The translations under genes and the position numbers were made by a program. A stretch of 62,688 bases of DNA, the filler included, from Collodictyon triciliatum (Eukaryota): the NCBI GenBank assembly GCA_043381765.1. It is 37 parts of 37 records of this genome, joined end to end, with 100 filler letters (N's around TTAATTAATTAA, not from the genome) between each part and the next. Parts side by side here need not be neighbours in the genome. Positions count along the whole stretch, not along the records: positions 61,156 to 62,688 come from JBHJMP010010829.1; 36 more parts are not named here. One strand, 5' to 3'. Positions 61,156 to 62,688 of this stretch are shown in pieces (within the stretch, counting starts at the first letter, position 1; each line of letters begins with the position of its first letter). The notes beneath the pieces were generated by a model. The model worked only from the letters and a program-made list of their open reading frames with translations. It ran no database searches and was not told where the DNA came from.

Positions 61156-62397
61156 TGCAAGGCCGAAGTCCGTCAGCTTGGCGACGCCGTTCACAAGCAG
61201 GACGTTCTCGGTCTTGAGGTCGCGGTGCTGGATGGGCCTTGGTCGTGTATGCAGGTAGACGAGGCCCTGGATGATGTGCAGCCCATACTTGAGGGTCAGG
61301 TCGATGCTGAGTGCCCCTTGTTTCTTGACCAGTGAGCAGAGCTCTCCGCCGTCCGCAAACTCCATGACGAAGAGCAGGTCCTTGCCGCGGAAGCCGAAGT
61401 CGTAGAGCGTCAGGACGTTTGGGTGCTGCAGCTCGAGCATCATGTTGCCCTCCTTCTCCGGGTCGGATCCGTCGGCAGCGGTGACCATAGCATCGCTGAT
61501 CTTCTTGACGGCGAAGAGGCCTGCCTTCAGCTGCACCTTGTATGCTGCGCCGAAGCCGCCCTTACCCAGAAAGTTGTCCCGCTTCTCAAAGTCCATTGTC
61601 AGGAGATCTGCGTATATGCCGCGGGCCAAGCGGCTGGGTGCTAAGGTGGGGTTATAGTGAGATGTATCCCTGAGGTAACAGTAGACAATTGTATGTGAGG
61701 TAAGTCTATTAACATACTTGATGATTCTGCTTTTTTAGCTTCAGCTGCGGTGTCGACCTAGGGTTATATTAGTTGTGTCCTGTGTTGTGTATGTGGGGGT
61801 AGGGGTGGTTGTGTGCTTACGGGGTCGTAGAGCTGCAGAGCGCGGACGTGCACATTTTCGCTGTGAGATGTATTTGTCCAGCAGGGGAGATTTGAGATGC
61901 CACGCGGGGCTCTCTTTATGTTTACTTTTCCACTTGCAGTTACCATGTCAAGTTTCTGTAGATTTGTGAGTGCTGTGATCTGTGCTGGAAGCTCCTCCAT
62001 CTGCGTGTATAATTGTCAGTCATTTTCTTTTAAACATAAATAGTAATATAATATATGAATAAAAACATACCGGATTGTTGAATACATAAAGTACTATAAG
62101 ACTAGTCAAACAGGATATTTGTGCAGGTAGTGATGACAGCTCATTGCCACCAAGACCCAATGCTGTGAGACCAGTCAAACACGATATTTGTGCAGGTAGT
62201 GATGACAACTTATTGCGATAAAGTTCCAATCGTTTCAGACCAGTCAACAAAAAAACACCAGGCGGCACAGATGACAGATTCTTGCCATTGAGACCCAGAT
62301 ATGCGGAGCTTTTTAGACTGGCAATATCGGGTTTCCCAGAGAGTTTCCGGACTTCTTCCATCAGTGCAGCATCTTCAGCAGACAAAGTGTTTCCCAT
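61156..62397 (-). CDS. LRR-protein kinase (paralogue B): MGNTLS N-terminus, LRRs, short linker, Ser/Thr kinase domain (3'-partial)
   Basis: Exons 62397-62071, 62000-61821, 61757-61718 and 61640-61156 splice in frame (phases 0, 0, 1). Kinase motifs LGKGGFG, FAVKK, HPNVL, HRDLKTENVLL, DFG. Confidence 0.87.
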
Positions 62398-62688
62398 GAT
62401 CTGGACAGATTCCGGCTGTGTATATAGGTAGACTGGCTGCGTGTCAATACAATACACATCATTTATTTGTTTTATGAGTGGACTTAGCAATCATACAGGA
62501 CAATATTACTCGAGTCAGGACGGTAGGGTTGTGCACACGGAGATCAGAAAGTACTGTGTGAATAAAAAAAAAAAGCAAGGATTTCGACAAGACGACATTA
62601 AATATCCCGCAAAGGCCGGCGGATTTTTCAGAGAAGACGACTTGTGCAGAACTTGTGTGCTTGTGCTTCCTTGGAAATTCACCGGTTC

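Follow-up and report, generated by a model that had tools for sequence, protein, structure and literature searches.

How can two genes on unlinked contigs agree almost letter for letter in upstream DNA, introns and silent sites and still encode proteins that differ at particular positions? The question is raised by a stretch of 62,688 bases of Collodictyon triciliatum (assembly GCA_043381765.1; hereafter the window), which consists of 37 separate contigs of ~1.5 kb, arranged in order of length with N/TTAATTAATTAA spacers between them. Two of the contigs, A (61156-62688) and B (6587-8132), each carry on the minus strand a gene encoding leucine-rich repeats (LRRs), and a blastn search together with a framework pattern scan of the stretch identified these two as the only members in the window. 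The evidence supports that A and B are paralogues within a multi-copy family and that, as judged from this one pair, change on the LRR beta-strand face outpaces that at silent and non-coding sites. The pattern stands out for its clarity: hardly anything has changed at silent sites, in the introns or in the leader, while single codons of the putative binding face are rewritten. We consider it probable, though well short of certain, that A and B are germline members of a large expressed family of cytoplasmic LRR recognition proteins, which diversify through their repeats and by replacement at the variable (x) positions of the LxxLxLxxN motif.

Repeats were numbered from the first Leu of LxxLxLxxN, with positions 2, 3, 5, 7 and 8 as the x positions. 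Within LRR1-4, A and B differ at 9/15 x positions and at 2/54 of the others (Fisher p=4e-6), which bears out the claim of an earlier note on this DNA, made from the sequence alone, that the differences concentrate at the x positions of this motif. With the irregular fifth repeat added, the counts are 13/19 and 9/72, respectively. The framework between these positions had been called identical, and all of the strings quoted for it (5/5) are present and identical in both copies. The dN/dS check that the earlier note had asked for could be made pairwise only, since the window holds only two copies, and the selection comparison is therefore limited to one pair with small counts: the Nei-Gojobori method gave a non-synonymous divergence (dN) of 0.54 and a synonymous divergence (dS) of 0.13 for the x codons of this pair, and dN=0.017 and dS=0.096 for the framework codons. 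Mismatches in non-coding DNA amount to 28/419 sites (0.067). In this single pair, replacements at x positions exceed both the silent changes (p=0.0013) and the non-coding changes (p=3e-7). The Leu and Asn codons lying among the x codons show no synonymous difference between A and B, and 5/15 x codons carry two-base changes. In a sliding window, sharp drops in identity mark the ten N-terminal codons, every variable segment and the tail of the cap that closes the repeats. An A-specific mutagenesis of the kind driven by diversity-generating retroelements was set aside, since base changes of every kind are seen in the x codons.

An AlphaFold (AF2) model built with a 12-row alignment has a mean predicted local distance difference test (pLDDT) score of 83.3, with values >90 in the LRR part. 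Its strands lie at residues 33-35, 56-58, 79-81 and 102-104, which correspond to repeat positions 3-5 and include x positions 3 and 5; the earlier assignment of the variable positions to the LRR beta-sheet face thus holds. A single-sequence AlphaFold model of exon 1 was all-helical with a pLDDT of 41.8 and was discarded. It is textbook knowledge, not derived from the model, that LRR strands form a concave sheet from which the x side chains point outward.

MAFFT and blastn delimit a block of ~960 nt common to A and B, which begins at the contig end and extends 33 nt into exon 3; past this point the two contigs are unrelated. Gene A is laid out as follows.

62398..62688, minus strand: 5' flank/leader, 94% identical to B, distal 111 nt identical
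62071..62397, minus strand: exon 1 (109 aa), MGNTLS start, N-terminal helix, LRR1-3 and first 10 residues of LRR4
62099..62247, no strand: 69-nt tandem repeat, 2.2 copies, 83% matches, the additional 23-aa LRR of A
62001..62070, minus strand: intron 1 (70 nt), GTATG..CAG, phase 0, after ..NNP
61821..62000, minus strand: exon 2 (60 aa), end of LRR4, irregular LRR5, cap IKRAPRGISNLPCW ... LQLYDP
61758..61820, minus strand: intron 2 (63 nt), GTAAG..TAG, phase 0, after ..LQLYDP
61718..61757, minus strand: exon 3 (40 nt, VDTAAEAKKAESS), within which the final stretch shared by A and B stops
61641..61717, minus strand: intron 3 (77 nt), best in-frame model, GTATGT..TTAG; alternative acceptor at 61608
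61156..61640, minus strand: exon 4, Ser/Thr kinase from the Gly loop to DFG, truncated by the contig end

Gene B has the following layout.

7842..8132, minus strand: 5' flank/leader, common with A
7581..7841, minus strand: exon 1 (87 aa), MSDYLT start, one LRR fewer than A; LRR_8 E=9.6e-11, plus LRR_4
7513..7580, minus strand: intron 1 (68 nt), phase 0, after ..NNP
7336..7512, minus strand: exon 2 (59 aa), end of the last regular LRR, irregular LRR, cap
7235..7335, minus strand: intron 2 (101 nt), phase 0, after ..LQLYDP; 37-nt unit x2.2 at 7251-7332
7061..7234, minus strand: exon 3 (174 nt), an E/A/K/R-rich repeat in place of the short exon 3 and the kinase of A
6587..7060, minus strand: 3' part, one open frame, GC3 (GC content at third codon positions) 0.67, runs off the contig; exon boundaries unassigned

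Over the 291-nt 5' flank, 270/288 aligned nt are identical (94%; blastn E=3.6e-124), in agreement with the ~290 nt of near-identical upstream DNA that had been reported for these unlinked contigs. The distal 111 nt (62578-62688 and 8022-8132) are identical throughout, and the two contigs end with an offset of 1 nt. Introns of similar sequence at the same positions had also been described, and so they are: intron 1 sits at the same place in A and B (70 and 68 nt) with 62/68 identical positions (91%), and so does intron 2 (63 and 101 nt), with 59/63 (94%). The surplus of intron 2 in B is a 37-nt tandem duplication. The upstream DNA had been labelled a conserved promoter, a label that is not supported. 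A contig from a metatranscriptome run (X4) equals 62575-62688 without any difference (114 nt) and extends 111 nt further; since this RNA-Seq contig, from another sample, continues past the contig end, at least part of the shared 5' DNA is transcribed, and at least its distal 114 nt are better called leader than demonstrated promoter. No coding part is as well conserved as these distal 111 nt. An RNA fold of the identical leader revealed no significant structure (z=+0.96), and the distal 5' flank has no reading frame that is conserved across the downstream 2-nt indel.

In gene A, exon 1 matches Pfam LRR_8 (E=6.3e-13) plus LRR_4, and LRRD1/SHOC2 in the PDB (E about 1e-41). In both genes exon 1 on its own holds about 2.5-3.5 repeats after the N-terminal helix, and a single intron interrupts the LRR region, separating residues 10 and 11 of the last regular repeat. 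The earlier note had recognised the LRR gene of contig A correctly; the protein kinase exon of A was left unmentioned, as was the probable coiled coil of B, and the extra 23-aa LRR was assigned to the paralogue on contig B, when in fact it belongs to contig A. Exon 4 encodes the N-terminal 60% of a protein kinase domain (Pkinase, PF00069, E=1.9e-29, profile positions 4-145 of 263), the C-lobe lying beyond the contig end, and the kinase motifs GKGGFG, FAVKK, HRDLKTEN and TDFG are readable in it. Among solved structures this kinase has no specific relative, with AKT, S6K, DAPK and WNK all near 1e-17. The spliced model of gene A contains 0 stop codons and has canonical GT-AG introns. No Pfam match to Roc or COR was obtained between the cap and the kinase, where only exon 3 and a short linker are found. 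GC3 in A and B is 0.36 and 0.39 in exon 1, 0.52 and 0.63 in exon 2, and 0.23 and 0.16 in exon 3, and it reaches 0.82 in the kinase exon of A; given this shift, the LRR module may have a different history from the kinase part.

Exon 3 of gene B is made of an 18-nt unit repeated 7.5 times with 93% matches (7085-7219), and its product is probably a coiled coil. Both this repeat and the 37-nt repeat of intron 2 are length-variable relative to A. For the 3' part of B there was no Pfam match, no Atlas match and no likeness to the Diphylleia RING protein described below.

Further members of the family were recovered from public data. Two small runs of one study (X2 and X3), whose library type is only guessed as RNA, contain 182 and 244 contigs, respectively, that match A at 80-100% identity. 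By identity class (99%+, 95-99%, 90-95% and <90%) these are 35, 39, 60 and 48 contigs in X2, and 53, 60, 69 and 62 in X3, and up to 17 and 12 different contigs in the two runs lie over the single position 62304. Joints in these contigs contain exactly one 69-nt repeat more or fewer than A. Eight contigs, four in each run, pass from the LRR framework to exon 2 without the 70-nt intron 1, and represent spliced RNA or, less likely, intron-less copies. Eleven printed replacement segments, translated by hand, all keep the frame; position 4 is L or F in each, and position 6 is I, V or L. When the five segments of A and B are added to make 16, the number of different residues is 10 at position 3, 8 at position 5, 8 at position 7 and 9 at position 8. 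A scan of the JGI metagenome contigs with the exact 26-nt leader pattern gave 0 matches. Word-index protein searches with exon 1 returned only generic LRR proteins at <=55% identity among the longer lengths (71 matches) and one weak match at near lengths, and the search with the kinase exon returned only generic kinases at <=44% identity.

Both window copies share a characteristic ending: an NPxxELPxxIxxL repeat, an irregular repeat, the motif ..[KR]xAPxGIxxLPCW.., and then LxLY. A profile of exon 2 compared with 1.84 billion representatives yielded 313 matches, mostly generic LRR proteins, and the cap motif is present in 22 of the best 150 of these. Seven of the cap-bearing matches are exon-sized open reading frames (ORFs), and all of those that were looked up (4/4) sit on NCBI contigs of 523-677 nt. 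These ORFs are 40-58% identical to exon 2 of A and <50% identical to each other; they start at the same intron-1 border (..Q|[MI]EELP) and pass LxLY into GT-like codons, and such shared borders imply that at least seven more types of paralogue have this exon structure. That more copies of the family exist, as the earlier note expected, is thus confirmed, by the 182 and 244 contigs of the two runs and by at least seven further types of exon 2. Its opposite, a family of only two copies, describes the window, but further variants are present in the public runs.

All long cap-bearing representatives that were looked up (16/16) are transcripts of Diphylleia rotans, a freshwater collodictyonid (EukProt EP00002). 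Their likeness to A and B consists in SHOC2-type LRRs that end in the ..RAPxGIxxLPCW..LxLY cap, and one member starts with MGNT.. as A does; the identity in the shared parts is, however, ~37-58%, which points to a species other than the source of the window. A Pfam scan of 9 of the 16 proteins found three with a kinase (P0254, P0244 and P0320), three with Roc, one with RING (P0272), one with a Zc3h12a-type NYN RNase (P0307) and one with LRRs only. Among the three Roc proteins, COR-A is present in two (Roc-COR: P0194 and P0243), DUF4062 in one and AAA_16 in one. The order LRR, cap and kinase in P0254 is collinear with gene A and the kinases are 41% identical, which speaks for a genuine LRR-kinase junction in A, even though GC3 jumps there from 0.36 to 0.82. 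The linker between cap and kinase is ~180 aa long in Diphylleia and ~30 aa in gene A. Several Diphylleia proteins hold two capped modules in tandem; in that organism the proteins are known as transcripts alone. The fusions of the module to Roc-COR with DUF4062 or AAA_16, to RING and to the Zc3h12a RNase recall immune receptors. Within the library that was searched, no paper pairs 'Diphylleia' with 'leucine-rich repeat'.

A simple hydropathy scan detected neither a signal peptide nor a membrane segment in A or B. Over the 20 N-terminal residues hydropathy averages -0.19 in A and -0.16 in B, the top 19-residue window (1.60) lies inside an LRR, and the ~30 residues from LQLYDP to the start of the kinase in A are without a hydrophobic stretch. 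Cys-rich LRRNT or LRRCT caps are absent from both proteins. The lack of a hydrophobic N-terminus and of a membrane segment indicates cytoplasmic proteins, and from their sequences A and B are predicted to be cytoplasmic LRR proteins of the SHOC2/LRRD1/RSU1 type. The closest solved LRRs are those of LRRD1, SHOC2, the Leptospira LIC proteins and RSU1 (E about 1e-41 to 1e-25). The MGNTLS start of A presumably fits an N-myristoylation motif, and A may be myristoylated. The analogy that had been drawn with the ectodomains of agnathan variable lymphocyte receptors (VLRs) and plant receptor-like kinases (RLKs) does not extend to this architecture, as signal peptide, membrane segment and Cys-rich LRRNT/LRRCT are missing and the LRRs are of the cytoplasmic type.

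With SHOC2, LRRD1 and RSU1, A and B share the 23-residue LxxLxLxxNxLxxLPxxI repeats and the intracellular setting, but those proteins are single-copy, conserved scaffolds of about 7-20 repeats with no PCW cap, no fused kinase and no hypervariable paralogues. With plant RLKs and nucleotide-binding LRR receptors (NLRs) and with the agnathan VLRs they share the multi-copy state and the diversification on the xxLxLxx beta-strand face, and RLKs likewise join LRRs to a kinase; unlike plant NLRs, however, A and B have no NB-ARC, and unlike the VLRs both genes are open and complete in their contigs, with no incomplete germline gene accompanied by cassettes. Beyond plants and animals, LRR families that diversify have previously been described in brown algae and in Tetrahymena. 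In Ectocarpus, LRR-ROCO GTPases and LRR-kinases are reported to be under diversifying selection at LRR positions and to vary in repeat number (Zambounis et al. 2012, PMC3341825). They have been proposed as candidate immune receptors, the ROCOs being taken as cytoplasm-facing (PMC3341825). The likeness to A and B lies in LRRs joined to GTPase or kinase domains in a eukaryote that is neither plant nor animal (PMC3341825). According to its account of gene structure, each 24-residue repeat of Ectocarpus is encoded by its own 72-nt exon and the ROCO exons are shuffled, whereas A and B have several repeats in one exon and gain and lose 69-nt repeats inside it; gene A has no Roc-COR between LRR and kinase. 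A 2024 paper on brown-alga ROCOs (PMC11378527) belongs to the same line of work, to judge from its subject. For Tetrahymena, a free-living freshwater protist, a very large, young and species-specific LRR family has been described (Xiong et al. 2019, PMC6564038). The features reported there that resemble A and B are the conservation of repeats at the nucleotide level, a proposed unequal crossing-over, and LRRs combined with kinase and other domains (PMC6564038). Its 90-bp exons, phase-2 introns, 30-residue units and link to a LINE-like element, as that report sets them out, were not seen in A or B. The family of A and B is distinct by its repeat-in-exon layout, its PCW cap, its direct LRR-kinase fusion and its lineage, and it appears to be undescribed.

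We propose the following course of events. Each protein combines a short helix with four or five 23-residue SHOC2-type LRRs and a cap (..RAPxGIxxLPCW..LxLY). Recent duplication, at about 6-7% neutral divergence, would have copied this sensor module along with the 5' leader and the two introns. The module is joined to varied C-terminal parts: gene A has a Ser/Thr kinase here, gene B a probable coiled coil, and the relatives Roc-COR, RING and NYN-RNase. New specificities would arise by two routes: whole 69-nt repeats may be gained or lost by unequal recombination between stretches of near-identical framework DNA, and amino acid replacement may be accelerated at the x positions of the beta-strands, the putative ligand-binding face. 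The proteins would bind variable protein ligands inside the cell and signal through the attached domain, in innate immunity or in some other recognition of non-self or of a partner. LRR faces recognise ligands in SHOC2, NLRs and RLKs, and by likeness to these a ligand-binding role is the most likely one for the variable face of A and B. An immune-like role is plausible, helped only by the list of effector domains in Diphylleia.

Several points weigh against this reading. The selection comparison consists of one pair with 14 replacement and 5 silent changes, and gene conversion could have kept framework and non-coding DNA alike and so deflated dS. That the LRR exons (GC3 0.36) and the kinase exon (GC3 0.82) belong together is indicated by one short contig and the collinearity with Diphylleia. 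The replacement segments were printed because they did not align and hence form a biased sample; the extra copies come from other runs of guessed library type, and alleles, strains and errors can inflate their counts. Scans by protein pattern confirmed 0 relatives among 600 matches in the JGI metagenome contigs and 0 of 98 in the viral contigs. The ligand binding and the cytoplasmic localisation of such a receptor are predictions. An origin from a virus was rejected on account of the spliceosomal introns and of the viral scan, in which nothing was confirmed.

A plainer account would be that A and B are ordinary signalling scaffolds, i.e. SHOC2/RSU1-like adaptors and LRR-kinases of endogenous pathways, with weak constraint at exposed positions and gene conversion holding the remainder of the module, along with introns and leader, almost identical, and with neither diversifying selection nor non-self recognition. 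We hold this to be unlikely, though by no means negligible: the closest solved LRRs are indeed those of the cytoplasmic scaffolds SHOC2, LRRD1 and RSU1, the kinase of A is an RD kinase (HRDLKTEN), every LRR family varies at surface positions, and conversion has a good substrate in framework DNA that is nearly identical both inside a gene and from gene to gene. Relaxed constraint, however, cannot lift dN over the neutral rate, and dN at the x codons is 0.54 against 0.067-0.13 at non-coding and silent sites. Conversion would homogenise the x codons too, which lie 3-6 nt from unchanged Leu codons, and the two-base changes at 5/15 x codons also speak against this account. Chimeric or collapsed contigs of a repeat family, produced in a fragmented and possibly amplified assembly, would explain why all contigs are ~1.5 kb long, why composition changes sharply inside gene A (GC3 from 0.36 to 0.82) and why both contigs stop at the shared identical 111-mer, which resembles a branch in an assembly graph; a neighbouring contig that ends in a 21-nt poly-G fits as well. 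In that case neither the pairwise pattern nor the LRR-kinase junction would belong to real genes. We nevertheless regard such an artefact as very improbable, since both gene models stay open through three or four exons with canonical splice sites, pieces >=99% identical to contig A recur in independent runs (35 contigs in X2 and 53 in X3), and both the LRR-cap-kinase order and the kinase subtype are the same in Diphylleia transcripts.

The changes could also have been made by a programmed exchange of cassettes, in which segments of ~18-28 nt are copied between members or from silent donors via 42-45-nt framework homology, by micro-conversion in the germline or even by somatic copy-choice of the sort known from agnathan VLR assembly. 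The variable segments are replaced block-wise between stretches of near-identical framework DNA, a framework 33-mer recurs with 0 mismatches at its specified bases, repeat number shifts by exact 69-nt units, and many segments occur at the same site in single runs. All of this would fit such a mechanism; we give it very little credence all the same, because both window genes are complete and open, with neither an incomplete germline gene nor a flanking cassette array, because none of the 16 segments was found twice in different contexts, and because the diversity within bulk runs is equally explained by many germline paralogues. The boldest version, to which we would allow only a slim chance, is that a deep-branching collodictyonid-like (CRuMs) lineage has evolved an independent intracellular LRR repertoire with kinase, Roc-COR, RING and RNase effectors, whose binding-face cassettes are swapped by micro-conversion or copy-choice, possibly somatically; if true, a cassette-swapping repertoire of this kind would be the unicellular counterpart of VLR-like diversification.

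The reading as germline recognition proteins bears on a wider question. Plants and animals alike build their innate immunity on LRR repertoires that evolve fast, and to our knowledge such repertoires have been described outside these groups in a few lineages only (brown algae and ciliates). The present family, from a freshwater collodictyonid-like (CRuMs) flagellate, belongs to an orphan lineage that branches near the base of Amorphea or to a close neighbour of it, and in Diphylleia the module is combined with several domains that immune signalling typically uses: kinase, Roc-COR accompanied by AAA/STAND-like parts, RING and the Zc3h12a RNase. If the proteins recognise viruses, bacteria, prey or mating partners, they would offer a tractable case for the origin of recognition repertoires in single cells. 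If recognition is not their function, the family would still be a good example of module duplication with change in repeat number.

The contigs of the window differ widely in composition, with GC from 0.26 to 0.61. A 21-nt poly-G at 61035-61055, at the end of the contig adjoining A, is probably a sequencing artefact of two-colour chemistry. A tRNA gene on another contig (58982-59054, minus strand; Rfam RF00005, 68.9 bits) is the sole Rfam match across the whole window. The scaffold at 8233-11876, interrupted by a 572-N gap, has an AT-rich gene with introns that encodes another Ser/Thr kinase, probably CAMK/AMPK-like; as this kinase is unrelated to the GC-rich kinase exon of gene A, the assembly may mix organisms or compositional classes. 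Two contigs (11977-13520 and 49715-51250) with GC of 0.60-0.61 and long open frames are distinct from the AT-rich bulk, and one of them encodes a G/Y/H-rich low-complexity run with a GC3 of 0.82.

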